Shown one piece after another: positions 7,958 through 61,373 of a DNA stretch of 64,000 nt. Source of the stretch: Cenococcum geophilum. Lineage: Eukaryota. The DNA is taken from contig CP158635.1 in assembly GCA_050273025.1 (NCBI GenBank), positions 4,774,001 through 4,838,000 on the forward strand, written 5' to 3'. The translations under genes were made by a program, and so were the position numbers. Numbering within the stretch: position 1 is the first letter of the stretch; each line of letters begins with the position of its first letter. The notes under the pieces were generated by a model. The model was given only the letters and a program-made list of their open reading frames with translations. It was not told where the DNA came from and ran no database searches.

Positions 7958-8195
7958 AGGACCTTTAATATAATAAATAGACTTATTCCCTAAAGCTAAC
8001 TATACCTTATATTTAAAACTCTATAAACCTAGTATATACCCTAAAGCGCAATCCGTCTTTAAAACTAAAAGGCCTTATATATAACCCTATAGACCTTAAT
8101 ACTACTTAATTCTATATACCTTTAAGAACTAATAAATAAAAAATATAAGCCGTAAATAGAGAATGCTTTAAATATAGTAAAAAGGGATATATTTA

Positions 8196-9214
8196 GTAGT
8201 AGTAACTCTTTAATTAACGTCTAATACGGATCCTACTGGCCCACGCAGACTACTCCGTCGCAGGGGGGAAAACTTGTAATTTACATGAAGAAAACCCTGC
8301 AGTTGGGGGAGGAAAAACCCTATAAGCCACCTTAGTAGGATAAAAAACCCCGTTTTGCTATATTTGTCCATAGCGGCGGCCCTACAGGCCTACAACTACG
8401 TCCTAACCTCCTTAAATGTTTAAACTCCTTGGGAACCACTGCTTCCTTCTCTAGCTTATCCCAGCTAGGGTTTACTACATCCCAGCTAGGCCTTGCTAAT
8501 TAATTGCTGTACTATTGTTTCCCATATCTTGGCTATCCCCTATATGCTATCTCTTGTTTAACCATTGCTATATATACTATGCCTCCCCCCCCCTAGGGCC
8601 TATTGAAGGCGTAAGGGGGATTTATCTATTTTAACTACCTAATACTAAAGGCGAGCGGAATATATACGCGTGTACTCTGGGTATCTTTTGTGCCTAGGCC
8701 CTGGTTGCTAGGCCCTCTCTAAGGGTTACCACTCCGTTAAGAGGAGATAAGGAAAACCGTAGGTTGTAATCCGGGCTGCTAGGCAGTAGGTAGTAAAACG
8801 GCGAGTGACCGCATGCTCCGCGGGCGATCGCCCTAGGGGTTAGGAGGGGCCGTATATTTGCTCGTTGCTCGTTTGCAGTTACTCGTTCATTAATATAAGA
8901 GGTTATTAATGCTTTCTGTTGGGGGTCGGGGGATGCTATCAAATGCTATGCATCCATGTTGGATCGTACAGGTGCCTTAATAGGAGGATAGTGTAGTAGC
9001 CGCTATCGTACGGGGTACCAACGGTGGTGGTTTTCGAGATCTCACCATCCTATGTGAAAACTTTTTTTACTACCGCCCATAATACTCGCAACCACCACCA
9101 CTATGTCGTATCGCACGCTGTGCGACGTCTCTGCGTTGGCTCTGGGTCTGAACTTCGAAGACTTAGGTTCGTAGCCGTCACCACGTATAGGTGCAGAGTC
9201 CGTTTTCGACGGCC
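8196..9214 (-). mobile_element. About 1-kb non-autonomous non-LTR (SINE-like) retroelement
   Basis: 14-bp TSD AAGGGATATATTTA at 8182-8195 and 9215-9228, splitting the Gypsy B gag Zn knuckle. Short (TAC)n tail. Its 3' ~100 nt resemble the LINE B 3' end (GGAGTAGTCYGC...GGATCCG..T.A.ACGTTAA). No credible coding capacity. Confidence 0.88.
9129..9214 (-). ncRNA. Degenerate HDV-like ribozyme fold at the 5' end of the SINE-like element
   Basis: P1 GGCCGUC/GACGGCU (G1-U wobble), P2 CUCUGC/GCAGAG, P3 ACC/GGU, 7-nt L3 UAUACGU, P4 remnant, J4/2 GCCAAC (one extra nt). P1.1 is restored only by reversing a RIP-type change. Confidence 0.6.
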
Positions 9215-10489
9215 AAGGGATATATTTAAAGAAATTACTAAACTTACCCTTTTTAAAATAACTAACGTAGTTCCTCTTAGTCCTTAAATTATACTTATTT
9301 TATAAATTATACTTAGTCGCTATAAAGTATTTTACCTTTAATTAATTTAGAAAATAAATTATACTAGGGCTAAGTTGCGCCTTAAGATAAAAAGTAGAAG
9401 AGTATAAGTATCTAAGCTCTTTTAGCGCTAATATATAAGACAACTCCCTTAATATACTTAGTAAAATTTAAATACTTAAAAAATAGAAGAAAGTATAAAC
9501 CTTATAGATAGCGGAGCTACTAATATAGGCTTTATTAATACGAACTATGTAAAAACTTAACGCTTAAATTTAAAGAAATTTAATAAGCCTTAAGACCTAT
9601 AAGGCTTTAATAGTAAGCCTTTAATATATAGTAAACTAATATACTACGCTCTTATAAAGATGTAGATAGGTAAATATCTTAAATATATTTCCCTATTTAT
9701 AATACCCTTAAAGCATTATAAGATAATACTTAAATATAGATAGCTAGAATAACACAACCCTTTAATTAGCTGGGTTAAAGAAATACTAAAATTCCGTATA
9801 ACCTACTGCCGAAATTATTACTTAAAATACTACTTGCCCTACAAATATATATATAACTATTTAAATTTAATATAATATAAATTGCCCTTACTATAAACCT
9901 TAAACCAATATAATAAAGTTATAACTACTAATTGTGGTAAAGAATGTAAAGATAATATATTAAACCCCCTTAAAATTTATATAATATAAGCCGCACCCTT
10001 TTATTTATTAGTAAGAAAATAAGACTATAAGATCTTTATTATAACACTAGAAGATATTAAGAAGGTATTAAAATTAAAGTAATATATTAACCTCTAACCT
10101 CTTATACCTAATAAATAATAATAATTATTTATTGCTTAACGTTTGATTCGGATCCCTATTGGGCCTATGCGGACTACTCCTTATATATATATAGGGAGAA
10201 AACTCTATTTAAGAAAACCCCGTAATCTATCTCCCTACCTTTTAGGACTCGCCTATAAGGCGCCTATAGGGCGCCTACGAGTTACCTATAGTGCTTCTAC
10301 TACCTTACTTTTTAACCTCCTTAGGAACTACTACTGCCGTAACAAGCCTACGGATGCGCTAGTATTGTATACTTTACTCTACTACTATACAGTTATTAGG
10401 GGGCGCCCGTTGCTCGCCCCCCCACCCTCTATTACTATTTCCCTAGCAACCCAGAACTAGTTTAGTATATTTTAGCTAATAAGCCACTA

Positions 10490-13400
10490 GGTAACCGCCT
10501 TAAGGCCTTTTTATATTAAGAGCAGTATATTATAGTTCTCTGTGCCAGCTACTAAGAGTATTACTTCTTAGTTGGTGCGTAAGGGGCATAACAGTATTAC
10601 GTGTTTTGGTGTCTGTCTTGGCCAGCTATATTTGCATCTTAGGCTACCTACTAGGACACCTACCTAGTAGAGCTAGTCTTTTAGTCCTATTATTCCTGTT
10701 CTTAAGAGTGTTGCCATTATATTTTCTACCTTCGTTAGGCCTTCTCGGAGCCCTAAAGTATTTACCCCCTATAGCATTAACTATACTACAGCTTAGGTTT
10801 CTCTTGCCTTAGTCAGCCTCTATACCTTTAACTCCTATACGCCTCTCCAGCGTTGGTCCAACTAGTATTATATTACAGTAGATGGTTTCCTAACGTTCTT
10901 TTATGCTCTACTTTAGCTCCTTTCTCTCTCTTACTATTATCTTTACTGGCCTCTTACGCGTCTCCCTTTCTTCTTTATATAGGCCTAGGCCCTAAAGCAG
11001 CACTATTTTTCTTCTGCTTTTTTTACTTGTTTCTCTAATATGTCTTCCCTACTTTAGGGTTGTTAGTTTATTCTCCTACGGGGCGCCCTAGGGTCCCTCT
11101 ATAGTTTATTTAGGCGTGTCTTAATATACTTTATAACATTAGAGTTGCGTTTATTTTGCGCCCTTTATATTATAGCGGCTTTAATATATAGTTATAGGGG
11201 GGGAATATTGGCTTCCTTCTCGAGCAGTGCTGTGGCCGTTCGCTTATATACGCCTATTATACTCCAAAAGTAGGCTATTTAGACCTTTTAGAGTGGTTTA
11301 AGGAGCGACTTAGGGGGGCCTTTCTTAGATTCTCTAATGGCCCAAATACTGGACCTATACGTTATGGTTAGCCGGACAACTGCTATATATAGTAAGCGTG
11401 ACCTTTAAAAGCATAGACCCTATATAGAATTAACGATCCTAGATAATACAATGTACTATACTTAGCCCTTACGGGCCGCTTACGCCGCATATACGCTCTA
11501 CTAGAGCTTACTGTCTACCTATACTTCTAATACCCTTAGGCCCTAAACTGGTTAACCCCTAAAGCTTTAGATATAAATTATATACTAAAAATCTACAGAT
11601 TGGTTACGTTTTCTTATAAAATAGATTAGCTAGTATTTCTCTAGTAAGAATTAGACTTTATATCGTCTTGCCTATTCTATATAGGTATTATAAGCTTTCT
11701 CTAGTATTCTATAATTCTTTACGGCTGTTAGCCCGTATATAATTAGGGTTATATTATTAATAAAGCCTATTCCCTGGGTTACCCCTTTCTTAAAGAAGTT
11801 AAGTAGGTTGCTTATAAAGAAAAGGAAGAGTATAGGCGAGAGGGGTAATTTTTATGGTATTCCTGTTGCAACTGTAATAGGGGGGCTCTGGTATCCGCTG
11901 AAAACTAATAATATTTCTTTTTAACCTGTAAACCCTTAAATAAATTATATAATCTATTCTGGGAAGCCTTTTACCCTAAGGATATATAGGAGACGCTCGT
12001 AGGGTACGTTATTATAGGCGCCACTAATATCTAGGCTGAGTATTAATACTATAAAGTCCCTTCGCATCGCCTATGCGGATTTAATGGTGGCAGCGAGTAG
12101 CGTAAGTGCTAATAGTGTTAAGCGGTTCTTTCTTACCCCTATTTGGCTCTATAGTAGTAGGGCATGTTCCTTAGCCGTGTCTGCTATATAGTCCGCTATT
12201 ACCTTTTCTAAGATCTTACTTAGGGTGTTTTCTAAGGTAATAGGGCGGTAGCTTCCTGGGATTAAGTAATCTGCTTTACCTTCTTTTTATAGAATAACCG
12301 TCGTTATAGATCTTCTGAGTCGCGGGTAGTAGCCTATAGTAAAGCATGCTCTGGCTATATTTATAAGCTAAGGTGCTATAAATGGTCTATAGGTCTTTAA
12401 GGCCTTATTTAGAATCCTATCTAGTCCTAGTACTATATTATTTAAAAGGCGGCTAATAGTTCTGGCTATTTCCTCTGTTATTATGTCGCTGTTAACCCGC
12501 AGGCGAGTTACTAGTATTTCACCCGTAATGTCACTAAGGTCTGCTAGAGCCGGTTAGGGGAAGAACCTTTTTATAAGGATCTTTGCCTTTTTATCGTTAT
12601 TGTTAGTAGCCTATAATTCCCCTGCTCTTCGTAGGGGTAATAGGTATAGGTCTTCTGCTAGTCGCCCTACCTTTTTCTTTACCTATTTTATTATAGCCCA
12701 CAGGCCCTTATTATAGGGGAGGCTTAAATTAAAAGTGTACTTATTTATAAATCGTCTCTAGTTGTTCCTTACTTTTTTTTTTTAGGGTATTCTTTAACTG
12801 GTTTCTTATGTCTTTATATCGTCTCTTATCTTTAGGGTTGTGGCTACTTAAGTATTTCCTTCTTGCTTGTTATTGGCTAGCTATAAGAACCGCGTATTAT
12901 ACGGACCATATATATCGCACGTAGGGGCCCGGTTTTAAGACTGGGTAGTACTCTTCTAACCCGTTTTTAATCGCTACCTAGATCCTTTCTAGTCTTCGGT
13001 TGATTTCCTTAGGGGTAGCTAATAAGCCTCGCTTGTTTGGTATTGGGTAGATTTCTTCTAGGTTTTAGAGTTGTTGTTTAACTATATTAAGGAAGCTGTC
13101 TGCCTTAAGCATCCTTATTGCGTATCTTTTGCTATTTAGTTGCGCCTTAATGTCTAAATCTAGCTGTATCTAGATAGGGATATAGTCTAAAGTAAGTGCC
13201 TATTCTTCTTCGGGGTTGCACCTTTTAAGTCTCTAGTATAGGCCTTCGTCTATAAATATAAGGTTAATTATACTTCTAGCGGATCCTTATTGCCATATAA
13301 TTGCTCTAGGGGGGGTGGCTAGCTTAAGGCCCCAGGTGTTTATGGCTTTTAGTAGGCACTCTGCCTATTATTTAGCAGCGACGTGGATACCCCCCTACCG

Positions 13401-13830
13401 TAGGTAGTGGAGGTTTATATCTTCTAATAGGATAAACTCTATGCCTTTGGTTTTAAGTAAGCTTATTACCGATATAATATTCTTTATTTGTGGGACCCCT
13501 TTAACCCTAGGGTTATATATATTAATGATTTATACCGGTCCTCTATATGTCTGGATTATTATAACTGTAATATCTGGATTAACTGCCTGCTATAACTATA
13601 AGGATAGGCTAATAGTCTTACTAATTATAAAGCATACGCGTGTAGCTGCTTTTGGTTTGTATAGGAGCTGGAATCCTCAGGGGCAGTATGTTAATTATAT
13701 ATAGGTGTTATAGTACGGCTCTTGTATAGTAAGGATATGGTGTTTCTCTAGGTCTAGGCTGTCTAGTAGGGGCCTTATAAGACGGTGGTTTGTGTTGCTA
13801 TAGTTATACTATATAATGGATAGGTAGCGG
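10490..13830 (-). pseudogene. LINE B ORF2: APE endonuclease, reverse transcriptase, C-terminal CCHC
   Basis: (G)D(M)NLH(H) near 13410, YRPITLENTLSKILEK near 12205-12250, GIP(QG)(S)PLSPILFLFF near 11820-11865, F(VDD) near 11755, QTPKHVILLCP near 10585-10617. Confidence 0.85.
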
Positions 13831-13839
13831 ACCCCCAGT

Positions 13840-15200
13840 GAGGGTCCTTCGCCTCTTTATTATTTCTCGCTTCTTTTATTTTCACTTTCTCTAGGATATT
13901 TAGAACTTTTATCTCTTGTATCTACACCCTGGTTACTACTTATTTTATATAGAGCTTTTTATTCCCATGTTTTATGTTCCTACTAGCGCTTCTATATCTA
14001 AATCTGTTATTGTCTTTAGTTTTTCCCCTGTTCTTACTGGTTGGCTATACGCCCTTTAAGAGTCGGCTGTAAATATTATATTTACCGCGTTAAGTCTAAT
14101 TCTTAATTGTCCTGGTCTTAAGCTTGCTATAGCTGTCTATAAGGGTCTTCCTATAGGGTGTTCTCTTCCTTATGTCCCCTATAATCCTTATGTCCCTATA
14201 CGGTTTAGTAATGTCGCGCGGCGTCGCTTCTGGCCCGTTAAGGCTTAGGATGGCTGGCCTAGCCCCCTAGTATTAAAGGTAGGAAACGATAGAAAGGTAC
14301 CTGCGCTCCCCTGGCTTATCGCCTGTTATTTCCATTTATATAACCTCGCGTGCAGTTATTCCCGTAGCTATTAAGCCCTTACCTTCTATCTCCTGTATTT
14401 AATGTAGTCTTCTCTTTTCTACGCCTTATATGTGCTTTGGTGGCAGTTTACGTATTTTATTTAGTCTTAATTTAAGTAGTGTCTTATATTGTGGGGGCCT
14501 ATATAGTGGCCGCAGCACACCTGTACTGCGTATATAGATTAGGTATATCCCTATTATACGCAGCAATAGTATTATTCTAGACATAGTCTATAGTTATAGA
14601 GCCTTATATTATATATAAGGCCGTTTATAATTATTCCTTTTTAGATAAGGAGTTTTTACATTTTTGGTATATATGTGCTAATAATAAGGGAGCCATACGT
14701 TTGTCCGGCGTCTCCCTAGTAGGTCTTTAGTAACCCTTATATCCTCTTATTATTCTTATTGTTTACTTAGTTTACATTTTCCTATTAAAGCTATTAGATT
14801 TGGGTAATCTTAAGTCCTAGTATAAGGCGTTTCGTTTATCTTACTATCTCTTATATAATTACTGTGTTGTCCGCCTAGCGTCCCTTTTCTACCCTAAGGC
14901 TTATAGGGACCGCTAGGACTTTAACTGGGTAATCCTCGCGGAGTACTTTTATGCTAATACGTTCTCCTAGCCTATTTCCTGCCCTTATGGCTCGTTTCTT
15001 TGCCTATTAGTCCTTTAGGGTAACTCTAATGTCTCCGCTCCTAAGGTGTCGGACCGTAATAGCGTTATAGACCTCTTTGCGGATTTTTATAAGGACTTCT
15101 ATTTCTAATTATCCCCTAAGCCCCTCTGCTTTTTCTGTGTTTGGTTGTATTGTAATTATATACCCGGTTGTTGTTTTAAGGGGGGTAAGTTCTCTATGCT
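13840..15200 (-). pseudogene. LINE B ORF1 (gag-like), degraded
   Basis: Lies upstream of ORF2, with Cys/His knuckle remnants near 14500-14600. Ends approximate. Confidence 0.55.
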
Positions 15201-16981
15201 ATAGAAGCGCAGCTACGGCGGCCTAGGTGCGGTTCGCCGGTAAAGGGGGGTTTTATTTGTTTTTAATTTTGCTTAGCTGTTAGAGGTAGGTAGTTATATA
15301 GTAGAGTTTAACGTGCCTACTTATCTAGGCCTCTACCCTAGTTTTTTAGTATTTATTCTAATACCTAGGCCCAAAGGCCTAGGGGCTTTCTATAAGTAGT
15401 TGGCTGCTACCACCTTAATAGGGGGTCTCACCAGTTCTTTTGGATATCTTATAATAGGATTAGCCTAAGCACTAGTCCGCCCCCCCGCGGTCTATATAAG
15501 AGTCTCCTTCTAAAGTTAGTACGCTTTCGCACGGCTTGGGAGCCTTCTATAGCCTCTAGTTTTACACCTTTTCTATTATTTCCGCTAGTATAGGCATAAG
15601 CTGCCTTTTCTAGGGGTCGCAACTCCCGTCTTATGTGCCTATTGGCGTAATCCTATAAAGATATTATAGCTGCATCCTGTAATATAGAAGCCTTAGGTAC
15701 CTTCTATAGTTAAGGCCTAGACCAAAAAGCCTCCCCTACCTAAGTAACTCCTATTTACTTCTTAAGCATATTTTATTAGCGTACCGCCCTAGAAGCGAAT
15801 AAACGGTTCCGTCTGTTAATATACCGACACGTGTATCCGTTCTCTTAAGCTATATAGTAGTCTTCTCCGGCTAGGACGTAATCCTACCTGCCTATTAAGT
15901 ATACTAGGGGTTAGAGCCTAGCTAAAGGGTAAGGTCCTTAGAGCCAGCAGTAGCTACTACGTACTTCACCCTATAGAAGACTAGCAGTAATATAGGGGCG
16001 CAACACCCTATATACCACTAGCTCCCGTTTTATAATACCTATAAAAGTTTCCTTATAATAGGCCGACCGTGTCTTGTAGAAGGGGTTTATAAATACTAGG
16101 TCCCGCGCCAGGCAACCTGCTCTACCCTCTCCTACTAACTAAGCTTATGTCCCCCCTTTTTATAAGACTGTTAAGTCCTCGTCCAACTAGCCTATATTTC
16201 CCCTATAGCCTCCCCTATATATATATATATTAGGTTACGTGCACTACGCCTATTAAGACCCTTCTATAAGTCGCCTTAGACGTATATATATTAGGTTGCA
16301 TATACTACGCCTATTAAGACCCTCCTATAAGTTACCTGTAAGTCGCCTGTAAGTTACCTACGAGTTAAACGCCATAGGGCCGTCGAAGCTGGCCTATATT
16401 TCCGCTGCCTAGAGCTTTACCCGTATTTCCACCTCATTAAGCCGTTTAGTTGCCGTCGCGTCACTATTACGTCGCTGTCAACCAGGTCGCGCGCACCACG
16501 CCTATTAAGACCCTCTTCTAAGTCACCTAGGTGTACCGGTATACTAGATAGGCCCTTAGAGGGGCCTTAATGAGTTCTTTAGGCAGGGCCTTAATAAGTT
16601 TCGTATAAGGTATCTATAACGCGTTAATTAACAAGTTCTTATAAAAAAGGGTTCCCTACGCCCTTGCCATATCTATTTGGTCTTAGAGCTAGTATAAGCC
16701 TAAGGGTGTCCTATTGTACGCCTAGGACGCGTCCGCATCCGCTAGCTTAATAAGGCTAGTTTCGGCCCTAGCTATAAGCTAAGTAGACGTACATTAGGTG
16801 GTTTTTATATCCTAGTTTCCCTTAATAGGCCTCCCTAGATGGTAGAATAGGAGCTCTAAGCGGAGGCAGTAAGGCTCCTAGTGTTATTAAGGGCGATGCT
16901 TTAAACGCGTCGCCGGCTCAACACCACAGAGTCACAACGACAGCGCGCTGCACGCGCTGCGACGGCTCTCTACTATTACCT

Positions 16982-17066
16982 CTGCACTTGGCTATCAAAA
17001 GGAACGGATTCTAGATGATGTTTCCACCCGCGGCGACGTGGACGCGTGTAGTAGGGCTTCGCGGGC
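16982..17066 (-). ncRNA. HDV-like ribozyme at the 5' end of LINE B (RIP-damaged P2/P4)
   Basis: Reverse complement reads GCCCGCG-AAGCCCTA-CTACAC-GCG-TCCACGT-CGC-CGCGGGT-GG-AAA-P4-GCCAA-GTGCAG. G1 abuts the TSD. Confidence 0.85.
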
Positions 17067-17079
17067 TACCTAATAAATA

Positions 17080-25029: not shown

Positions 25030-28000
25030 TGCTACTAAAAGCAGCCACTATAACGCTATTAACGGCGGCAACTACTTTAAGGTTAGGAGGTAATACTAGT
25101 ATAGCGGATACTAACTTTTAATAACCTATAATGGTTAGATAGTTATAAGAGATAGTTAACTAGTTAATAATAAACAATGCGGCGCTAGAAGAAAGGGTTA
25201 ATAGGATAGAAGCGGTAAAGATTAAGTTACTATTAATTAAGAGATACTTAGGAGAAAGATTAAAGCTTAAGGGATTTCTTACGTAAATGTACTTTAAGGT
25301 AATATAAGAAGGAGCGAAGCTGCTAATACCTATAGATTGAATAGCCTATATAGGACTATTCCTATTAGGAAGGGCACTTAAATAGTTTAAGCTTTACCTT
25401 ATAGAAATACAGGCAAATAGAATAATAACTACTAATTAAGAGGTACGGTTTATGTTCTTAAGCTAGGAAGGGTTTATAGAGCGATTTATATAAATATTTA
25501 GAGACCTAAAGGTAGTAACTATAGCAGAAAGAAAACTCTAAGACATTATATAGCGAATATTAGCAATTAAGTATATAACGCAGTTCCAGATATTAGTAAT
25601 ATAAGTTAAGTAAAATAATAAGGCGCTTATGGTATAGTATAAGTAAGGACTTAAGGCTAAAGTCTAGGATATAATTATTCTAATAGAAGATGCGGACACC
25701 CTATAGGATTTAATAGATTAAGCAATTAAGATTAATAATTAGATCTACTAAAGGGAACAGGCTAAGAGAGGTTAAGATAGAGTTCTATAGTTATATAAGG
25801 CGTAGAGTACGCATTAACTAAAGCTAAGTTAGAAACTATAGTATGGCGCAAAGCTAATGGACCTAAGTAGTACTAAAGAAGCCTATAAGAGATAGAGTAA
25901 GAAACTATAAATACCTAGAGGTTAAGGATCTAGTAATTATAAAACTAAGGAGTAGAGGCTAAACTAAGGATCTTAGTAGTAGAAGATATTTAGGCGGACT
26001 CTATAGTAAAGTTAATAGTTTAAAGATAAAGCTTATATAAATTATAGAAAATAAGGTTACTTTGTAAGGGATTATAAAGATAGTTAGAGTTATTATGCAA
26101 TAAAGGGAACCAGATTAGCAGAAGACATATATATATAAAGGGATAATAGTATACTGCGAGGAATAAAAGAATATTTAATTAGAAGTTTTACGTTTTATTA
26201 TAATAATATATACCAAATTTATAAAGACGCTAAGTATGGCGTAAGCTATTAGCTATAAAAGCTATACTTAGCAGAGTATAAAGGAACTAATAAACCAGTT
26301 TGTAGATTAAATATTAAGGACGATAAATTTAACGTAGGCGAAATATTCTATAATAATAAGGCAATGAGAGCGGCTTACTAGGAGCATATAGACCTTAAAG
26401 ATGTTATAATAGAGGTAGAGGATAATTCTACTACAAAATAGGGAATATTAGTAGAGATTAAGACCCCACTAGATATAATATCTATTGCTTTATAAAATGT
26501 AAAAGAAGTAGAGTAGCAAACTACTTTAGTATTTAATAAAGGTAAGAAGCTAAAGGCTTAAGATTCTTATAATGAGATAAGAGACAACTAAGATTTTTAA
26601 GACGAGATAAGGTAAACCTAAGGACCTATAATAGACAGCAACTAATAAAATAGGGTAGTAGCTTAGTTTAAAGATATATAAATAAGCTTAGGACAGAGTT
26701 TCCTATAGGCATAAGATTCTCAAGATAAAATAAGTGAGATTTAAAACTCTTAAAATAAGATAAGAATATTAAGTAAGCCTAGTTGGACTAAGGCTAGAGT
26801 AAAGCTTAAGTTAGAAGTAAGCTTAGGATTAAAAATCCTATAGAACTAAGACTTTAAGTAACAAATAAGGACTATTAATAAGATTAGAGAATTTGCGGTA
26901 TAAATAGCAACTAGATTAAAAGACAGATATATAGACCTAAAGGACTTACTAGGGGAATAAAGTGTTTAGCTTAAGGATCGGAATATTAATACTAAGATTA
27001 AGAAGTAAGAAGACTTTAAGGATCTACTTATAAGACGCGAAAAGAAAAAAACTATAAAGGAATTTAGAGTAAGAATTACTTTATGGCAAGAGCAGAAACT
27101 AAATAAGAGATCTAGTATATTAGGATGTATAAGGGACAGAGCGCTAGTATAAAGAATTACTAATAGGCCTAGAATAGGTATACTAAGAGCTAAGTGGCTT
27201 ACCGAACTAGAATAAGAAGAGGATTTAGGGATTTTAACTAGGTTTAAAGAACGATATATAAAGGGCTGTTATAACGTAGTAATAAGAAGATACTTCCTTA
27301 TGAACGAACTATATACACTTTAGTAGCTATACTAAAAGTGGTATAGGTAGAGGCATAATGATAAGTAGGAAGATTTCTATATATGGTTAGATGAGAAAGT
27401 TATTTAGAACTACCTAATTATAGAAAAAGTAATAAGTTATATTAAGGGAGCCTTAATTATAATATTAAAAGATCTAAAGGAGCGTTTAGAGGACTAGAGA
27501 AGTAAAAGGCGTATTTTAATACCTATAAATAAAGTTATAATGTTTAGATTAATATAATAGAGGCTTAAACTTAAGGATAAAGATAAACTAAGAGTTAACC
27601 TAAAGCACTAAGCATATTATATATTAGCGTGGATTATATATATGGATAATACGTATAATATATATAGAGCACTAAAGGATAAGTATTAAAAATACCCTAT
27701 AAGAATATATTGGTTAGCAGAAGAATAGAAGTATTAAAACGCTAAGTATATATATAGCTAGCATCTAGTAGAAGTTTAGGAGTTAGGTAACTTAATATTT
27801 TAACTAAGAAAATTCCTTATAGAAGAATACCTAGATGGATAATAGTGGTGGAAATGCCTAGAGAATATATGTCTATAGTATATTAAGGATAAAAAGCGAA
27901 TTAAGTATTGGCTAAAGGTGGACTAAGTATAAATAAGATTAAGTAGCTAATAGTTAGGAAAAGTAGAGGCCTATAGGACTAGAGGGAGCTAGTAGTAAAG

Positions 28001-46952: not shown

Positions 46953-47087
46953 ATAGTTACTAGTATATATTAAGCTGCCTAGAAAGGATTTATATATATA
47001 GAACTATAGCACTATAGCCTAGAGGCTGTATGCGTATTATTGTACGTAGTATAATATAATAAATATATAAAAAATATATAAAAAAAA
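46953..47087 (+). mobile_element. About 135-bp 3'-terminal fragment of LINE A inserted in the Plavaka element
   Basis: Matches 59080-59207, has an A-rich tail, and an imperfect 14-bp TSD AAGTATTAGTAAAT / AAGTATTAATGAAT. Confidence 0.88.
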
Positions 47088-52733: not shown

Positions 52734-53013
52734 TTAAAAAAACACAACATAGGCTAGTCGGTCGAGTTGCCAAATGCCCTTAACTGCGCGCCAATTGCGT
52801 CAACCACTAACTATTAAGGCCATTAGTAGGGTACTATATTTTGCCGATATACTCTATTTCCTAAACCCCCTTCTTCTACTAGCTCTATAGAGTAGAAGAA
52901 CTATATTATAGATAGTAAATAGGAATAGCTAGAACTAAAGAAGATGGAGGTTAAATAAGTAATCTTCTCTAGCTCTAATAAAAAAGCTCTAGGGCTAAAT
53001 AAGCTATCCTTTA

Positions 53014-53098
53014 GCCCGCGAAGCCCTACTGCACGCGTCCACGTCGCCGCGGGTGGAAACATCATCAGGAATCAATTCCTTTTGATGGCCAAGTGCAG
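53014..53098 (+). ncRNA. HDV-like self-cleaving ribozyme, intact fold
   Basis: P1 53014-20/53048-54, P2 53029-34/53093-98, P3 53035-37/53045-47, L3 UCCACGU, P1.1 CC/GG (53055-56), P4 53060-87, J4/2 GCCAA. Confidence 0.9.
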
Positions 53099-54865
53099 AG
53101 GCGATGGTAGAGAGCCGCCGCAGCGCGTGCAGCGCGCTGTCGTCGCGGTTCTGTGGTGTTGAGCTCGCGACGCGTACGATGTATCGTACAAAGCTTCGCA
53201 CAAAGCATCGCCCTCAACAACACCAGGAGCCTTACTGCCTCCGCTTGAGGCTCCTGCTCTACCACCTAGGGAGGCCTATCAAGGGAAACTGGGATACGAA
53301 AACCACCCGATGTACGACTACCTGGCTCGTAGCCAGGCCCGAAACTGGCCTTATTAGCCAGTCGACGTGGACGCGTCCTAGGCGTACGACAGGACACCCT
53401 TGGGCTTGCACTAGCTCTGAGACCGTAGGGACACGGCGAGGGCGTAGGGAACCTCTTTTTATAAGAACTTGTTAAGGTTAACGCGTCGCAGATACCTCGT
53501 ACGAAACTTGTTAAGGCCCCAAGGCCACCGCGAAGAACTTGTTAAGGCCCCTGCCTAGAGAACTCGTTAAGGCCCCTCTACGAGGGCCTATCTGGTATCC
53601 GGTACTCCCAGGTGACTCAAAAGAGGGTCTTAATAGGCGTGGTGCGCGCGACCTGGACGCGACAGCGACGCGATAGCGACGCGACGGCGACCAGACGGCT
53701 CGACGAGGTGGAAACACGGGCAAAGCTCTAGGCAGCGGAAACACAGGCCAGCTTCGACGGCCCCATGGCGACCAGGTGACTCACAGGAGGGTCTTAATAG
53801 GCGTGGTGCACGCAACCTGCGCATATACATATGGGGGAGGCTCTAAGGAAACACAGGCCAGTCGTACGAGGTCTCAACAGTTAGAGACACAGGCCAGCTT
53901 ATAAAAAGGGGGGACACAAGCTTGGTTAGTAGGAGAGGGCAGAGCAGGTCGCCTGGCGCGGGACCGAGCATCTACGACCCCTCCTGCAAGACACGGTCGG
54001 CCTGTCATAAGGAGACTCTTACAGGCAACGCGAAACGGAGACTAGTAGTATATAGGGTGTTGCGCCCCTATACTACTACTAGCCCCCGCGGGGCGTAGTG
54101 CGTAGTAGCCACTGCTGGCTCTAGGGACCTCACCCCTTAGCTGGGCTCTAACCCCTAGTGCACCTGGTAGGCAGGCAGGATCACGTCCTGGCCGGAGAGA
54201 CTACTACATGGCTCGAGAGAACGGATGCGCGTGTCGGTGTACCAATAGACAGGACTGCTCGCTAGGGCAGTACGCTAGTGAGGTACGCTTAAGGAGCAAA
54301 CAGGAGTTACTCAGGCGGGAGAGGTTTGGCAGGCCTTAACTGTAGAAGGTGCACCCACTCCACACTGCAGGATGCAGCCACGACGCCCTTGTAGGATTAC
54401 GCCAGTAGGCGCGTGAGACGGGAGTTGCGACCCCTGCAAATGGCAGCTTATGCCCGTGCCGGCGGAAACAATGAAGAGAGGCGTGAAACTAGAGGCTATG
54501 GAAGGCTCCTAAGCCGTGCGAAAGCGTACCAACTCTAGGAGGAAACTCTTATACAGACTGCTAGGGGGCAGACTGGTACTTGGGCTAACCCCATTATAAG
54601 ATATCCGTAAGAACTAGTGAGAATCCCTGTGCGATTGGTGGTGGCAGCTAACTGCTTGTGGCTGGGATAAAGCACTGGAAAACTGAGGTAGAGGCCTGGA
54701 TAAGCAGGCATAGTAAACTCTACTGTATTATTAGTACTACTAGTATATATAACTACCTGCCCCTTTGCTCCTCCGTCCGTCGTCGCAAGGGCGCCGCCGG
54801 TTGTATACCCCCTAAAGACACGTCACCACGACGCTAGCCACCACAACCAACGATTCCACCACAAC

Positions 54866-55462
54866 CGGTCTGCCACAGAGCAGACGACCTCCACTACAAC
54901 CAGTCTGCCGCAGGGCAGACGACCTCCTCTACAACCCGTCTGCCGCAGGGCAGACGACCTCCACTACAACCCGTCTGCCGCAGGGCAGACGACCTCCACT
55001 ACAACCAGTCTGCCGCAGGGCAGACGACCTCCACTACAACCAGTCTGCCGCAGGGCAGACGACCTCCTCTACAACCAGTCTGCCGCAGGGCAGACGACCT
55101 CCTCTACAACCCGTCTGCCGCAGGGCAGACGACCTCCACTACAACCCGTCTGCTGCAGGGCAGACGACCTCCACTACAACCCGTCTGCTGCATGGCAGAC
55201 GACCTCCACTACAACCCGTCTGCTGCAGGGCAGACGACCTCCTCTACAACCCGTCTGCTGCAGGGCAGACGACCTCCTCTACAACCCGTCTGCTGCAGGG
55301 CAGACGACCTCCTCTACAACCCGTCTGCTGCAGGGCAGACGACCTCCTCTACAACCCGTCTGCCGCAGGGCAGACGACCTCCTCTACAACCAGTCTGCTG
55401 CAGGGCAGACGACCTCCTCTATAACCAGTCTGCTGCAGAGCAGACGACCTCTACTGCAACCG
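54866..55462 (+). repeat. 35-bp minisatellite, about 17 copies, each with a stem-loop
   Basis: Unit GTCTGCC-GCAG-GGCAGAC-GACCTCCWCTACAACCM. CAGRGCAGAC recurs every 35 bp from 54876 to 55436. Confidence 0.95.
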
Positions 55463-57886
55463 GTCCACGGCTGTCGCGCTATAGGTAATTAAACTATAGA
55501 GGACCGCAGGCGTACCGCAGGCGCACCGCAGGCGTACCGCAGACGATGCACTGCTAGGGTAGCTATAGTAGGGGATAGGGGAAGGGGGCCGGCCCGTGTT
55601 ACTTTAGCACGTTAAATATAAGGTATATAGGCGAATTGGTGTTTATACCCTATACAAGACAACCTCGTGAAAATTTTCCTATGGGAGTGGGTTTACGTAA
55701 CGAGGTTCGCCCTTATAAAATACCCGTTTTCTAGAGCGTAAATCTAGGATTAGTAGGTTACTTTTGGGGAGAGTACCTACTAATTACTAATTCCCTACCC
55801 ATTTCTTTAGCAAGGAGAAGGAATAGGGTATAGAATTAAACAGTCGTATGGGGGTAATTGGTAGCTACTTTCAAGCTAGTAAGCTATATGGTTTCTCTTA
55901 TTCTTATATGCAAAACTACGTTAAAAATCTACCTTTTAGAGCGCTTTTTCTACTCTAGGAACGGCAGAATACGGCAGAAATAGATAAAAGAGCCAGGATT
56001 TTCGTGTGATTTTCTTGGTGTAAACTGGACCATAGTAAGCAAAATATCAGGACAAAACACCAATAGGCTAGGACTCCCCTAGTATTTAAAAACGGGCCGG
56101 AGTGTCCACTTAGCTACTAGTACATGTTAAGCTGCCTAGGAAGGATTCATGTATATAGAACTATAGCGCCATAGCCTAGAGGCTGCATGCGCAGTATTGT
56201 ACGTAGTATAATACAATGGATATAAAAAAAATAAAAAAAAAAGCTATCCTTTATAATCCTATAAAAGGCCTACCCTATTATAAAAGATCTTCTATATAGA
56301 ATCTATAGGATTTTATTTACCCTAGGTTATCAACTAAAAGTCTAGAAAAAGGCTTAAGGAGTTATTCTCCCTAAAGCAAATAAAGAGGACTATTCCCTAC
56401 TAAAGTCCTATAGACCTATCTCCTTACTAAACTACCTAGGAAAGACTTTAGAGAAGATCTTTATTACTAGATTAGGATATCTAGCTAGTACTACTAGCTT
56501 ACTTTAAGACTTATAACTAGGAGGAAGAAGATAGCGGTCCGTAATAGACGTAGTTTTACTACTCCTAAATAATATCTAGTTTAAAAATAATAGGAAAAAA
56601 GCCAGATAAAGAATAGCTACTACGCTATTTCTAGATGTAAAAGGGGCCTTTAACCATATCTCCGTAAACTAGCTTTTATCTATCTATAAGGAACTAGGGC
56701 TATCTATAGCGTTTATGTAATAGGTAGCTACCTTCCTTAGTAATAGAAAGCTACAGCTCTACTTTAATAGACAAATATAAAAAAAGGTAGAAATAGAAAC
56801 AGGGATACTATAGGGTTCGCCTATATCTCCTATTTTATTTCTACTATATATACGCAATATCTGCAGCCTATAAACAGAAGGAGACTATTCCCTTAGCTAT
56901 ATAGACGATTTTGCAATTATGGTTACTTCGAACTTAGCTAAATCCAATTATAAAAAGCTAGAGGGAATAGCGCTAGAGCTAATATCTAGAGCTAAAGAAG
57001 TTACTATTAGTTTTAATATTAGCAAAATAGAGCTTATACACTTCTATAGTAAGCGTATTACTATATAAAAAAAAGAGCTAAAGCTAGGAGATATAGAAAT
57101 ATCCCCTAAACCCCTAGTTAGGTAGCTAGGGGTATTTCTAAACTCTAAGCTTACTTTTAAATAACACGTAAAAATTAAAATCTCTAAAGCAAAAACAGCC
57201 TTCTATTTAATTAGAAGACTAGGCAATATATAAAGAGGTCTATCTCTATAAGCTCTATAACAGCTCTATATAGCTTGCGTTACTACTATAGTAGACTATA
57301 AAATATAATGCTGGTGGAAAAGCAAATCTAGAGACTACCTATTAGCTAGGTATCAATCTCTACAAAATAAGGCCCTAAAACTAGTTTTAGGAGCGTTTAG
57401 AGGATCTCTTATACAAGCTATAGAAATTAAGGCCTCTATCCCTCCTCCTAGAATTAGATTTAAAAAGCTTTGCAATAGCTATACATTAAGAATCCTAAAA
57501 TTTAAAGAAAACCACGTAATTAAAAAGGCCTATATAAAAGAGATTAATAAGGATAGGGAGGAACTAGTAACTAGTTCTAGTTCTAGTTTTAGCCCTAAAA
57601 ACTCTACTATAAGACACCTTCTATAGCTAAAAACTTAACTACTATCTCTAGCTTCTAGAGTCCAGTAACTAATTCAAAATTGGAAAATAGAGAGAATCTC
57701 TCTAGATTGGCAAAAACCGTAGTCTCCCCCTATTTCTACATTCTTTTCTATCTCTAGGGGTAGTAAAGAAGAAGCTATACAAGAACATTTAAGACTAGTA
57801 GAAAATCTATAAGAATCCCTAGAATGGGACCTAGTAGATATATACTATATAGACGGCTCCAAAGATAGTAAATTAAGTATAGCGGC

Positions 57887-58015
57887 TGTGACGGCTGAAC
57901 CACCAGCTAAAAGGATAGTGCACGAAGAAGATCAAGATCGACTTCGCAGCTTGTAGTTTAACATATATGTACCTAAATAAGCGCCCGCAGGTCACGTGAC
58001 GTCACAACCGTCACA
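57887..58015. mobile_element. 129-bp solo LTR
   Basis: Termini TGTGACGG...CCGTCACA. 5-bp TSD GCGGC at 57882-57886 and 58016-58020. Confidence 0.9.
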
Positions 58016-59220
58016 GCGGCCGTATATAAAATAGGGAAGAGAAATAGGATTAAATACGCAATAAATTGGAATCTAGGGCCTTATATAGAAATTATAGACG
58101 TAGAACTTTATACAGTCTATAGGGCCCTAGAATATCTAAAATAATAAAGACTAGAAGAGAAACAAGTTTATATCTTTATAGATAGCCAAACAGCTATTAA
58201 AAGATTACAGCTTAATTCTCTTACAGGGGGACAAGAACTAGTCTTTAAAATTACGTAAAGCTGCTCTTATCTAGCTAGTAAGAATATCTTTATTAACTTT
58301 TATTGGGTTCCTAGCTACCTAAAAATCTACGGAAACAAAATAATAGATAAGCTAGCTAAAAAGGGCCTCTTTAGAAGAAAAATATAATCTTCTTATACAT
58401 CCCTAGCCTATATAGGGAGAGCAGCAAGAGAAAAAATACTAGGATAGTAGAAAAGCAACTAGCAACAGAAAAAAATTAAAGGACAATACTATACTAGGAT
58501 CTTTAGAGGAAACTACTCTTTATCTCTTAAAGCCCTTAAGGATAAATATCCTAAAAGGTTACAATTAGCTTTCTATTAACTAAAACTAAAAAAAGGCTTC
58601 TTTAAATCCTTCTCTAAGACAATAGGGAAGGATAAAGAAGGTAGATGCTTTAAGGACTATAGAGCTATATAGACTCCTAAGCACCTATTACTAGAATGCA
58701 GACTATATAGGGAAGAGAGAAAAGAAATGCAAAGACAACTAAGCTCTTCTCTCTCCCTAGAGAAGCTCTTTTATATAGAGAAAGGAAGAAGGGCGCTTTT
58801 CCTATTCCTAAGTAAGACAGAAATAGCTACTAGAAAGTGGCTAATAGAAGTAAAAGCTTTAGAAGGAGGTAACTCCTACTAAACTTTTAGTAAATAGATA
58901 GTAGTGAGCAAAAGGACAGAAATAAACTATAAAATGTATAGGGGCAGGCGTTAGGATTCGTTTACCGTTTCTTTTACCGTTTTTTTACTATTTTAATACT
59001 ATCTAATAGTTGTCGTAACCTAGTATTTTACTAGGGAGCGGTAAACCTCTAATCTAAAGGTTTATAAACTACTAGGATATAGCTACTAGTATATATTAAG
59101 CTGCCTAGAAAGGATTTATGTATATAGAACTATAGCGCTATAGCCTAGAGGCTGTATGCGTAGTATTGTACGTAGTACAATACAATGGATATTAAAATAT
59201 AAAAAAAATAGGCCTCTACT

Positions 59221-61373
59221 TTTCCTAACTATTAGCTGTTTAATTCTTATATATTTAGCTTACTCTTTAGCTAATACCTAGTTCGCTTTTTGTCCTTAAT
59301 ATACTATAAATATTTTTTTTGGCACTTCCACTACTATTATCCGTTTAAGTATTTTCCTATAAAGAATTTTCCTAGTTAAAGTATTAAGTTGTTTAACTTC
59401 TAAACTTCTATTAGATGCCAGCTATATATATACTTAGTATTCTAGTATTATCGCTTATTTAGCGCCTAATATATCCTAATAGAGTATTTCCGATTCTTTT
59501 CTTTTAGGTTTTTATATATATAATCCACGCCAATATATAATACGCTAAGTACTTTAGGTTAACTCTTAGCTTATCTTTACTCTTAAGTTTAAACCTTTAT
59601 CTAGCTAATCTAAATATTAGTTTTTTATTTATAGGTACTAAAATCTCTCTTTCTTATCTCTAGTCCTCTAATCCTTCTTCTAGATTTTTAAACGTTATAA
59701 TTAATGCTCCCTTAATATAACTTATATGTCTTTCTATAATTACCTAGTCCTAGATAACTCTTTAGTCTAGCTATAGGTAAAAATCTTCCTAACTATTATT
59801 ATATTGCTGCCTATACTACTTTTAGTATAGCTTTATAAGCGTATACAATCTATCTATAAGGAAATATCTCGTTATTACTGCTTTATAACAGCCCTTTATA
59901 TGCCGTTCTTTAAATCTAGTTAGAACTCCTAGGTTCTCTTCTTATTCTAGTTTTTTAAGTCACTTTACTTTTAGCGTGCCTATTTTAGGCCTATTAGTAA
60001 CCTTTCTTAAGGCTATTTTTAGCTTACCCGGCATCTTTAGTCTATAGTACCCTCGTTATTCTTACTATGCTTTAATTTAATTCTTAAATTCTTTTTAGTC
60101 TTCTCCTAGTTTATATCTAGCTATTAGATCCTTTAAATCCTTAAATTTTATAATTCTAGTATTAAGTATTTAATTCTAAGGCTAAATATCTTATTTACCT
60201 AATATAGGTACTTCTAGCTCCTTTCGAAGTTATACCCCTACTTTAATCTATTTAGACTCTTATAGTACCCTTATCTCGTCTTAAAAATCTTAGTACCCTA
60301 AAACCCTTTATCCTATACTTATTTATTTATCCTTAAACTAAGCCTATACCTTACTCTATTAATTGTTATTTATTATAGGTCCTTAAGCTTATCTTATCCC
60401 GTCTTAGGAATCTTAAGCGTCTCTTATCTCTTTTTAAGCATTTTAAGCCTATAGCCTTTTGCCTTTATTAAGTGCCAAAGTAGCCTACTATTCTACTTCT
60501 CTTATGTCTTGCGAAGTGATAAATATTATATCTAATAGAGTCTTAATCCCCATTACTAATCCGGTTTCTATAGTAGATTTAACCTCTACCTCTATTATAT
60601 ACTCGAACTTTACGTACTCCTAGTTAGTCGCTTTTATCTTATCGTTGCTACTTATAGTCCAATTATTCTAATCCTTGGATTCTATAGCTTAGTAAAACTA
60701 GAACGTAAGAAACTTCTTCGCTAACTACTAGCTAGCTATACTATCTTAGTCCTAATTTAGTTTATAGAGTTAATCTAGTCCTTTATCTAACTCTCTTATA
60801 CTTTAAAGTCCTTTTAACTTAGGCTCTTATAGCTAATAGCTTACGCTATACTTGGCGTCCTTATAAACTTAGTATACGTTATTATAATAAAAGGTAAAGC
60901 TTTTAATTAAACACTCTCTTATTCCCTATAGTGTATTACCGTCCCTATATACGTATATACCATCTACTAGTCTTATTCCCTTTACTACGTAGTTATACTA
61001 ACTACCTCTATAGTCTCTAGTGAAATAACCCTATTTTCCGTAGTTTATATAAGCTCCTTCTTTATACCACTTTTCCTGCTATAGAGTCTGCCTAAATATC
61101 TTCTACTACTAAAACCCCTAGTTTGGCCTCTACTTTTTAGACCTTTAATTATTTAATTTTTATTCTCTAGATTTCCATAGTTATCTATTCTTATATTCTT
61201 TAGTACTACTTAGGACTATTAGCTCTACGCTATACTATAATTTAGATACCTATTAGTATACCTTTCTTATATACTTCGGTCCCTAATACATTCTATACTC
61301 CTTATTGCTTTAATATAGCCGGTTATTAATCTTAATAGCCTATTTAATTAATTCTCTTATATTGCTTAGGTCT
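59221..61373 (-). mobile_element. Gypsy C gag region, related to family A
   Basis: Reverse complement is largely colinear with about 25690-27960. Confidence 0.85.

Follow-up and report, generated by a model that had tools for sequence, protein, structure and literature searches.

A probable chimeric retrotranscript joining a leader RNA with an HDV-like ribozyme fold to an abundant retroposon in Cenococcum geophilum

We analysed a stretch of 64,000 nucleotides from Cenococcum geophilum (GCA_050273025.1, contig CP158635.1, positions 4,774,001 to 4,838,000 of the forward strand), hereafter the window. Positions 53014-56240 form a single 3.2-kb insertion with a perfect 13-bp target-site duplication (TSD), a poly(A) tail, no coding domain and little repeat-induced point mutation (RIP), the mutation that fungal repeats undergo. 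A six-frame Pfam search of the insertion returned no family at E<=0.1. The RIP substrate index, (CpA+TpG)/(ApC+GpT), was 0.83 in the insertion versus 0.41 and 0.45 in the flanks, and the GC content was 0.52-0.58 versus 0.32-0.34. An earlier note on this DNA had described one TSD-bounded, non-coding retrocopy much less affected by RIP than its surroundings, and these points were confirmed. The coordinates of the individual features are collected in Table 1.

The target of the insertion is the reverse-transcriptase region of a RIPped copy of the retrotransposon LINE A, whose own tail lies at 59080-59208 and which upstream of the insertion reaches at least 52850. In a paralogous LINE A copy (L027) the target is uninterrupted, with one copy of the target sequence and an alignment that runs across the insertion point. 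The empty target was also present in short contigs of DNA runs X1 and X6, where position 53000 is joined to 56241 with 13 shared letters. LINE A and a second family, LINE B, are non-LTR retrotransposons; both have RVT_1, TSDs and a 3′ end that is A-rich or made of simple repeats, and their reverse transcriptases (RTs) are 30% identical. The RIPped copies of both families yielded no endonuclease domain.

Table 1. Features of the insertion, its target and related copies in the window
Feature	Position	Strand	Remarks
Leader-LINE B chimera, RIPped	10116..17066	-	leader 17066-15284 followed by full-length LINE B body; RVT_1 E 5.5e-14
Third copy of tail module, with A-rich end	46954..47083	+	upstream sequence unlike X and LINE A
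5′ TSD, AAGCTATCCTTTA	53001..53013		identical to 56241-56253, 13/13
Leader	53014..54759	+	1.75-kb non-coding RNA, copied in full; 5′ partner in the chimera
HDV-like self-cleaving ribozyme fold (predicted)	53014..53102	+	
Chimera junction	54757..54763	+	leader ...ACCTGCC / X CCCCTTTGC...; 2-3 nt C assignable to either side
Retroposon X, near full-length copy	54760..56240	+	lacks ~11 nt of the longest X 5′ ends (GTCCGTCGCCT)
Hairpin array of X	54855..55465	+	17.5 x 35 nt, 95% matches; unit GTCTGCC-GCAG-GGCAGAC
X body	55466..56110	+	no second copy in the window; in all 121 listed loci
3′ tail module common to X and LINE A	56111..56223	+	starts at TAGCTACTAG
Poly(A) tail	56224..56240	+	A8TA8
3′ TSD	56241..56253		identical to 53001-53013, 13/13
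Target: RIPped LINE A copy, 3′ part	56254..59208	+	RVT_1 at 56379-57068, Pfam E 1.1e-19

The 3′ half of the insertion belongs to a repeat that we call retroposon X. Copies were sought in the window and in metagenome loci, possibly from other strains, found around a seed at 55958-55979, and X was present in at least 121 such loci. The earlier note had described about 650 bp upstream of the tail as unique in the window. No other copy of 54760-56110 was indeed found there; the metagenome loci show that the body is repetitive. The hairpin array that had been reported was also recognized, and copies bearing it include L040, L042, L048, L057 and L073, among others. L040 is the nearest to the window copy among the loci listed, with 2 transversions in 566 nt. 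Several T4-5 runs occur within X.

Concerning the tail, positions 56111-56240 are 91.5% identical to 59080-59208 and 86.9% identical to 46954-47083. In a purine/pyrimidine alphabet, a transition-blind comparison used to see past RIP changes, 56111-56223 is 98-99% alike to 59080-59197 and 46954-47076. In the alignment the homology of the three tail copies begins at the same base, and about 125 nt are common to X and LINE A. Three hairpins are predicted in the tail, with a folding energy that is not unusual (z -1.4). As 107 of the 121 listed loci align across the boundary between body and tail without a break, the position near 56110, one of two internal junctions proposed previously, is not a chimera point; the other, near 54760, is. 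The 3′ end is of LINE A type as claimed, and was not grafted on at this site but belongs to X, which has its own TSDs.

X also has a 5′ end of its own. This end lies inside 17 of the listed loci, and in all 17 the upstream DNA is unrelated and is not the leader. Of the 36 copies that could be tested, 16 are flanked by exact direct repeats of at least 8 nt, and L011, L025, L034, L040, L045, L048, L057 and L058 have TSDs of 8-14 nt. X is an independent, TSD-flanked, expressed non-autonomous retroposon and an abundant family in its own right. An Rfam search of 52900-56400 gave no hit at E<=1 to a tRNA, 5S or 7SL head, and lacking such a Pol III head X was not classified as a SINE in the strict sense.

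On the minus strand, 17066-15284 is a homologue of the leader that makes up the 5′ half, and there it heads the window's LINE B copy. Aligned over 53014-54728 and 17066-15296, the two match at 76-80% (92-96% in the purine/pyrimidine alphabet), so that the reported likeness of about 1.75 kb, ribozyme fold included, was upheld. Differences between them are dominated by C>T (111) and G>A (103) versus T>C (14) and A>G (20), which identifies the copy at 17066-15284, and not that at 53014-54759, as the RIPped one. The leader-LINE B chimera carries the ribozyme fold at its head and a (TAA)n-type tail, and is flanked by the TSD TTTATTAGGTA at 17077-17067 and 10115-10105.

Both ends of the leader are constant. 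All six full-length copies start at the same base (G1), with unrelated DNA upstream. Of 12 leader 3′ ends inspected, 11 terminate in AACTACCT plus 0-3 nt of GCC, and the remaining one (L053) could not be placed because of its degeneracy. A search for ribozymes or other processing signals at the 3′ boundary was negative. Head-to-tail leader joints and solo or tandem leader source loci were absent from the window and the 121 listed loci.

The 5′ end of the leader coincides exactly with the predicted cleavage site of an HDV-like fold. The fold comprises P1 (53014-53020/53048-53054, with G1.U41), P2 (53023-34/53093-53102), P3 (53035-37/53045-47), P1.1 (53039-40/53055-56) and P4 (53060-53087), together with J4/2 (GGCCAA) and a candidate catalytic C at 53089. 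All 31 pairs of the nested double pseudoknot could be drawn together with the J4/2 C and the G.U pair. In a search of 111 nt the full RF02682 model was matched at 29.5 bits (E 2.9e-4), which is below its gathering score of 44, and the alignment recovered P1, P3, L3 (UCCACGU) and J4/2 (GGCCAAG). RF01788 scored 17.7 bits (E 0.15), also below its gathering threshold (38), and a search of the whole window with Rfam at gathering thresholds gave no hits. The RIPped twin at 16980-17065 matched RF02682 at 22.6 bits. Across six ribozyme copies 95% of the cells for the 31 pairs are paired, versus 34-57% when the partners are slid. As the six copies are near-alike and differ mainly by RIP, covariation amounted to one double change, a level reached in 172 of 500 shuffles. 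Judging from the predicted fold and its position, self-cleavage of an HDV-like ribozyme would set the 5′ end of the leader.

The junction between leader and X in the window was found in none of the 121 listed loci, and all 29 BLAST segments break there, none spanning it. The 12 leader joints lead to 12 different partners. Retroposon X is entered at seven points, ~1748 (window), ~1850 (L013), ~2540 (L053), 2633 (L017 and L060), 2637 (L009), ~2674 (L067) and 2851 (L012). The leader is also joined to the last 394 nt of LINE A (L059), to the 5′ end of LINE B (window), to LINE B position 3469 (L017) and to leader position ~289 (L017), the last joint being present in run X1 as well. At several joints 1-3 nt (CC, GC or ACC) are common to both sides, a reading by eye rather than a count. 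The entire unit is bounded by TSDs in both window chimeras (the element itself and the leader-LINE B copy) and in L009, L012, L017 and L060; none was recognizable in L067 and L059. The head had been assigned specifically to LINE B. This assignment does not hold, as the same leader 3′ end also abuts X at six further positions, as well as LINE A, a truncated LINE B and the leader itself, and in L063 a LINE B body begins at the boundary without a leader.

One joint position is shared by two loci, L017 and L060. Their leaders display no transversions in ~830 nt, and their X parts display 12 transversions in 564 nt. Each X part matches a different leaderless X copy with no transversions, indicating that the shared joint arose twice independently.

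Taking these results together, we consider it likely that 53014-56240 arose in one event of target-primed reverse transcription, by which a chimeric retrotranscript of two parts was inserted. A non-coding RNA with a ribozyme at its head was probably fused to an abundant parasitic retroelement during reverse transcription, and the anatomy of the copies suggests a template switch in the course of the target-primed reaction. Recognizing the shared 125-nt tail, an RT, presumably that of LINE A, would start at the poly(A) end of X RNA and copy it nearly through to the 5′ end. The enzyme would then switch templates, entering a second RNA, the 1.75-kb leader, at its 3′ end (...CCUGCC) and copying it as far as the 5′ end, itself the putative product of self-cleavage by the HDV-like ribozyme. 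Integration of the product into a LINE A copy already mutated by RIP would generate the 13-bp TSD.

The earlier note had favoured a propagating non-autonomous family, in which a master with exactly this layout of leader and X would depend on the ribozyme for 5′ processing and on the LINE A tail for recognition by the RT. The copy is un-RIPped with its ribozyme fold and tail intact, leader and X are both present in RNA libraries, and the junction search was confined to the metagenome loci and the window. Nevertheless, we regard such a family as improbable, taking into account that neither the 121 listed loci nor the 17 X 5′ ends join the leader as the window element does, that every joint has its own partner, and that the only shared joint position was generated twice. 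The same evidence favours the one-off template switch that the earlier note had set against its family, and the window element is most likely one such event among recurrent template switches. With its intact ribozyme fold and tail, it could in principle be copied again.

Ligation of RNAs before reverse transcription has been proposed for U6/L1 chimeras. Applied here, a leader with a 2′,3′-cyclic phosphate at its 3′ end would be ligated to X RNA with a 5′-OH, and the product reverse-transcribed in one pass. A constant 3′ end with variable partner entry points is expected from ligation as well, and ribozyme chemistry provides cyclic-phosphate and 5′-OH ends (PMC5640933). We find this route unlikely, given that the leader 3′ boundary lacks a recognizable ribozyme or processing signal and that the short shared letters at several joints better fit priming on the acceptor 3′ end. 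Far less probable is an internal deletion of one full-length LINE that began with the leader and ended with the X body and tail. This is the layout of R2 and R2/R1 SIDEs (PMC3414825), and one LINE B copy, at 10116-17066, is indeed headed by the leader. On the other hand, the LINE B tail differs, the part of the LINE A 3′ UTR that precedes the tail does not resemble X, X has its own TSD-associated 5′ end, and no parent with both ends was found. Independent deletions would not produce one left boundary at all leader joints. As this boundary is common to unrelated partners and no listed locus shares the junction, we rejected classification as a SIDE-type, internally deleted LINE. The region is a nest of transposon insertions, which would accommodate one DNA insertion nested in another (X in an element carrying the leader, or the reverse), with no chimera at the RNA level. 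This is the least probable of the explanations and scarcely credible, as the only TSD pair is at the outer ends, the paralogous empty site is clean, and the inner joint at 54757-54763 has neither a poly(A) at the leader 3′ end nor a TSD for X.

Chimeric pseudogenes of U6 and L1, and of other snRNAs and LINEs, are known in mammals. As in U6-L1, the 5′ partner has a constant 3′ end, entry into the LINE is variable and a TSD surrounds the unit. The 5′ partner of U6-L1 is a small housekeeping snRNA, whereas the ribozyme-headed leader RNA, at 1.75 kb, bears the characteristic features of the head of a mobile element. The earlier note knew of no fungal example, and one has in fact been described: the MINE chimeras of Magnaporthe grisea, comprising WEIRD-MGL, WEIRD-Mg-SINE and tripartite WEIRD-Mg-SINE-MGL (Gogvadze et al. 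2007, PMC2104539). MINE likewise combines a full-length copy of one non-coding RNA (~1-2 kb) with a LINE, or a non-autonomous element sharing its tail, entered at variable points. The unit is flanked by 10-20 bp repeats, comparable to the TSDs here. Chimerization positions recur in both (six pairs in MINE; X 2633-2637 used three times here), GCC is a motif at MINE switch sites and ends the leader, and multi-part chimeras occur in both (leader-leader-LINE B in L017). The window element has the anatomy of MINE and U6-L1 chimeras, with one TSD, poly(A) at the 3′ end only, a complete 5′ RNA, variable entry and a stand-alone X. The sequences and the host differ from those of MINE. While the 5′ partner of MINE is an RNA of unknown nature, the 1.75-kb leader starts with a canonical HDV-like fold. 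Retrocopies bearing the leader have tails of two kinds, LINE A type and LINE B type, and in the window copy X is nearly complete rather than truncated. Micro-homology is reported to be absent at MINE joints, in contrast to the 1-3 shared nucleotides read here. X resembles Mg-SINE, which shares its tail with MGL (PMC2104539), in having only its last ~125 nt in common with LINE A, in its poly(A) and TSDs and in being non-coding, and differs in its length (1.1-1.5 kb), the absence of a tRNA/5S/7SL head and the 35-nt hairpin array.

R2 SIDEs and R2/R1 hybrids of Drosophila are also non-coding, with a 5′ HDV-like ribozyme and a 3′ end recognized by the RT of a possibly different LINE (Eickbush & Eickbush 2012, PMC3414825). 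They are described as rDNA-specific families derived from full-length elements by internal deletion, whereas our joints indicate RNA-level fusion of separate RNAs at dispersed sites, and no family with the junction was found. In the non-LTR retrotransposons R2, L1Tc, RTE and baggins an HDV-like ribozyme makes up the first ~90 nt of the element, so that cleavage defines the 5′ end of the DNA copies (PMC6765202, PMC3185411). The fold described here occupies the same place, yet heads a non-coding module separable from the LINE body. The examples cited in the relevant part of PMC6765202 are metazoan or trypanosomatid. In fungi, 230 variant HDV-class ribozymes in 26 species were added to 11 canonical ones known earlier (Li & Breaker 2017, PMC5640933). 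The variants have C-G at the cleavage site, an E-loop in P4 and one extra nucleotide between P2 and P3, whereas the present fold has the canonical G.U and a plain P4. The word retrotransposon does not occur in that paper. We found no fungal case of an HDV-like ribozyme associated with a retroelement in the literature surveyed, most subscription journals lying outside it, and the leader would add one.

Chimeras of this kind are known from the rice blast fungus; what is new is that the 5′ partner has a predicted ribozyme at its head and has been captured in retrocopies of two LINE families. In the window and the listed loci the leader occurs with two LINE tails that are unrelated, with a SINE-like parasite and joined to itself, and in annotation the LINE B leader and LINE A tail are to be treated as separable modules. 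It is possible, though doubtful, that the leader is a selfish ribozyme-headed 1.75-kb RNA, neither a LINE 5′ UTR nor a housekeeping RNA, that travels only as a 5′ passenger on cDNAs of at least two LINE RTs. If so, each capture would give a 5′-truncated or promoter-less retrocopy a self-processing 5′ end, making the leader a mobile 5′ module for non-LTR elements, and for its 3′ end to be so exact (...CCUGCC), processing or self-cleavage of a kind outside current models would be required. The WEIRD RNA of Magnaporthe may be the same kind of entity. The leader, with its HDV-like fold and fixed 3′ end, suggests what WEIRD-type RNAs might be and offers a testable model for the gain or exchange of 5′ ends by non-LTR elements.

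Both halves are represented in RNA data. In run X7 the RNA contig depth was ~48,000-227,000 over 54764-56053 and ~2,800-10,500 over the leader, with a baseline of 2-5 in low-copy flank bins; these depths are sums over repeats and not copy or expression levels. The highest depth was that of the hairpin array. Raw RNA reads of run X23 over X were strongly strand-biased (165-181 versus 4-8).

The window element (53014-56240) is a single unit with exact borders, enclosed by a perfect target-site duplication (TSD) and ending in A8TA8. GC content is 0.52-0.58 inside the unit versus 0.32-0.34 around it, and the substrate index for repeat-induced point mutation (RIP) is 0.83 versus 0.41 and 0.45 in the flanks. 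Pfam searches of all frames found no family in the element. Its first 1.7 kb correspond to 17066-15296 (reverse strand) with 76-80% identity, or 92-96% in a transition-blind alphabet; the many short matches of 25-60 nt in transition-blind BLAST were taken as two-letter-alphabet noise. Between these two leaders, as we call the 1.75-kb non-coding 5' module (53014-54759), the 17066-15296 copy shows 111 C>T and 103 G>A changes, the reverse changes numbering 14 and 20 and transversions 37; this copy is therefore the RIP-mutated one. Similarity searches within the window, including transition-blind ones, found no second copy of 54760-56110. The 130 nt at the element's 3' end have counterparts at 59080-59208 and 46954-47083, and in the alignment the tail homology begins at the identical base in all three copies. 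The target, a RIPped LINE A copy, is uninterrupted in a paralogous LINE A copy (metagenome locus L027). In two DNA runs, short contigs pass directly from 53000 to 56241 with 13 letters in common, but may derive from paralogous LINE A copies and are thus uninformative on alleles. The earlier note had described this unit and interpreted it as a young non-autonomous element combining two LINE families; the observation was borne out, the interpretation only in part.

Features of the window element and of the leader joints
Feature	Location	Detail
TSD of window element	53001-53013 and 56241-56253	AAGCTATCCTTTA, 13/13 identical
Hairpin-unit tandem array	54855-55465	35 nt x 17.5
RT domain of the host, a RIPped LINE A copy	56379-57068	RVT_1 (Pfam)
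TSD of leader-LINE B copy	Window	TTTATTAGGTA
Helices of putative ribozyme	Leader head	P1 7 bp with G1.U41, P1.1, P2, P3 3 bp with 7-nt L3, P4; J4/2 GGCCAA, candidate catalytic C 53089
Leader to X	Window element	From about the 12th nucleotide of X
Leader to X	L013	At array start
Leader to X	L053	At ~2540
Leader to X	L017 and L060	At 2633
Leader to X	L009	At 2637
Leader to X	L067	At ~2674
Leader to X	L012	At 2851
Leader to LINE A	L059	Last 394 nt of LINE A
Leader to LINE B	Window LINE B copy	Full LINE B body
Leader to LINE B	L017	From position 3469
Leader to leader	L017; also a contig in DNA run X1	At leader position ~289

The part downstream of the leader (54760-56240) is a copy of an element of its own, X. 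A metagenome scan with a 22-nt seed (55958-55979) gave at least 121 loci, and flanking DNA was taken for 80 of them. All 121 loci listed align to the window element. At about 56110, which had been proposed as an internal chimera junction, 107 of the 121 loci listed run straight across from body to tail, and 9 of the other 14 stop at the locus edge; the poly(A) end is reached by 98. The X 5' end lies inside the locus in 17 of the loci listed, at or a few bases from the equivalent of 54760, and none of the 17 has the leader upstream. Stand-alone copies carry TSDs of 8-14 nt (for example L011, L025, L034, L040, L045, L048 and L058), and an automatic scan found exact repeats of at least 8 nt in 16 of 36 testable copies. 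With its own leaderless 5' ends, its own TSDs and an uninterrupted body and tail, X is therefore a stand-alone, non-coding poly(A) retroposon of 1.1-1.5 kb. Its short 5' region is followed by a hairpin array that varies in length, a body of ~650 nt and a tail of ~125 nt in common with LINE A; an Rfam search found no tRNA, 5S or 7SL head. A 24-nt indel (55700-55723) divides X into two subfamilies, the segment being present in 29 of 69 covering copies and absent from 40; the window copy carries it. In seven further loci (L008, L041, L064, L072, L074, L078 and L086), at least six of them from one contig set, the final ~370 nt of X follow a different upstream body (...CCAGCAGCCCAGTCGGTTGCACAATTCC...); these are a further family using the X 3' end.

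Twelve leader 3' ends were compared, two of them in the window (the element itself and the LINE B copy), three in L017 and one each in L009, L012, L013, L053, L059, L060 and L067. Eleven of these end with AACTACCT plus 0-3 nt of GCC, L053 being too degenerate to place, and the sequence beyond differs each time. Several joints, read by eye, have 1-3 letters (CC, GC, ACC) common to both sides. TSDs surround the entire chimera in both window cases (the element and the leader-LINE B copy) and in L009, L012, L017 and L060; none was recognisable for the L067 or L059 chimeras. The earlier note had regarded the head as the leader of LINE B (10116-17066, reverse strand). In L063, however, the LINE B body starts exactly at the leader boundary with unrelated DNA upstream, and elsewhere the leader is found on other partners, so that it is not integral to LINE B. 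To judge from these joints, the leader appears to behave as a discrete RNA, attached to whatever a LINE enzyme copies. The 3' end of LINE B, ...GTTAAGCAATGAATAA(TAA)n, does not resemble the LINE A tail, and the reverse transcriptases (RTs) of the two are 30% identical. Pfam detected RVT_1 alone in LINE A and LINE B copies; the metagenome loci held no intact LINE ORFs, their five ORFs of at least 250 aa all being unrelated to LINEs.

The first 89 nt of the leader can be drawn as an HDV-like nested double pseudoknot. Over 186 pair cells in six copies, 95% are paired, versus 34-57% with partners slid; covariation gave no support for the helices in these six copies, 172 of 500 shuffles scoring equally high. 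The Rfam model HDV-F-prausnitzii matched 53015-53100 over its full length with 29.5 bits (E 2.9e-4, 111-nt search) and the RIPped twin with 22.6 bits, and drz-agam-2-2 matched the leader head with 17.7 bits, all below the gathering score. Plain thermodynamic folds, in which pseudoknots cannot be drawn, did not stand out from shuffles at the putative ribozyme, at the tail or at the 3' end of the leader (z -1.2 to -1.4). All six full-length leader copies start at G1 with unrelated DNA upstream. Such a common start would be expected if a cleaved RNA were copied to its end, and is the strongest indirect evidence for the putative ribozyme. As for the fixed leader 3' end, a second ribozyme was considered and rejected, since no family matched at E<=5 in window 14900-17150 except the 5' HDV-like match; none was found in L063 3600-4100 either. 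Tandem head-to-tail leaders as a source of unit-length RNA were represented by no joint in the window and the 121 loci listed.

The earlier note had envisaged a propagating family with the joint near 54760. None of the 121 loci listed spans this joint, and 29 of 29 alignments break there. Only one joint position was used twice, in L017 and L060. Their leaders differ by no transversion in ~830 nt, their X halves by 12 in 564 nt, and each X half matches a different leaderless copy (L022 and L049) without transversions. Propagation of one chimera is ruled out for this pair, as the halves come from different X lineages; the 24-nt indel common to both is a widespread subfamily marker. The two chimeras are independent events at a hot spot, with the L009 joint 4 nt away. 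The twelve joints thus represent twelve events. Three independent leader-X chimeras enter X at 2633-2637 (L017:5700-5710, L060:5707-5717, L009:6330-6340; about window 55646-55650). A predicted AACCTCGT...ACGAGGTT stem lies immediately downstream, and the cluster resembles the template-switch hot spots reported for the Magnaporthe LINE MGL. Re-copying of any chimera left no sign in the metagenome loci, which possibly represent strains other than the source of the window.

How, then, was the window element made? A single TSD surrounds the whole unit and poly(A) is present at the 3' end only; a nested insertion is disfavoured. The 5' partner is a full-length RNA with a fixed 3' end, and the 3' partner an RT template entered at variable points; an internal deletion is likewise disfavoured. 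Taken together, these four features correspond, by comparison of anatomy, to chimeras made by LINE template switching, and the element is therefore read as such a product. The RT, probably that of LINE A because the element bears the LINE A tail, would have copied X RNA almost to its 5' end, continued onto the 3' end of the leader RNA and run to the ribozyme-defined 5' end, the product integrating into a LINE A copy that RIP had already mutated. An alternative to the template switch that is still live has the leader and X RNAs ligated first and reverse-transcribed afterwards.

Contrary to the earlier note, which knew of no described fungal example, one exists: the MINE elements of Magnaporthe have the same anatomy (Gogvadze et al. 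2007, PMC2104539). There, the 5' part is the non-coding WEIRD RNA at its full length of 1.1 kb, and the 3' part a 5'-truncated MGL LINE or an Mg-SINE; repeats of 10-20 bp are present, chimerisation sites recur, switch sites show a GCC motif and a tripartite case is described. A similar end product is seen in R2 SIDEs and R2/R1 hybrids, which originate through deletion, however, and exist as families (PMC3414825). HDV-like ribozymes are reported to head R2, L1Tc, RTE and baggins (PMC6765202), and fungal HDV-class ribozymes are known (PMC5640933, a paper that does not mention retrotransposons). Titles and abstract beginnings, with subscription journals mostly outside coverage, gave no link between an HDV-like ribozyme and a fungal retroelement. 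The window element thus adds a further case to a known kind of chimera; not described for that kind are the predicted ribozyme head of the 5' partner and the occurrence of this partner on retrocopies of two LINE families. The leader would matter more if it turned out to propagate itself as a 5' module and to have 3'-end processing of its own.

In RNA library X7 (a sequencing run, as is X23), contig depth is ~48,000-227,000 over 54764-56053 versus 2-5 in low-copy flank bins, values that are sums over repeats and do not measure expression level. Raw reads of run X23 over retroposon X are strongly strand-biased. Leader depth in a raw-read RNA run was ~3-20 in most bins and 62 in one. Reads seemed to end at 54760 because the X copies of the organism sequenced carry a 23-nt duplication of the X 5' end (54760-54782), with CCT between the repeats, seen in L057:7095-7130 and in 236 reads of X23. 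Over 56054-56311, a stranded run showed an orientation opposite to that over the X body (first mate 10-20 plus, 1-7 minus), which suggests antisense transcripts across some tail copies.

Other repeats were also observed. At L013 ~1034-4694, the RIPped hairpin array of a leader-X chimera is interrupted by a ~3.6-kb element whose terminal inverted repeats measure ~45 nt. Window 46954-47083 is a solitary 125-nt tail module with an A-rich end and upstream sequence not closely like X or the LINE A 3' UTR; it could be a relative that has lost most of its 5' side, or a different element that shares the tail. A GC-richer segment just past the LINE B 3' end (8200-9230, reverse strand) belongs to another repeat, also present in L034, L049 and L050. 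Inverted copies of yet another RIPped repeat lie at 25833-27974 and 59208-61243 (76-77% identical, 90-93% transition-blind), one of which abuts the LINE A tail end at 59208.
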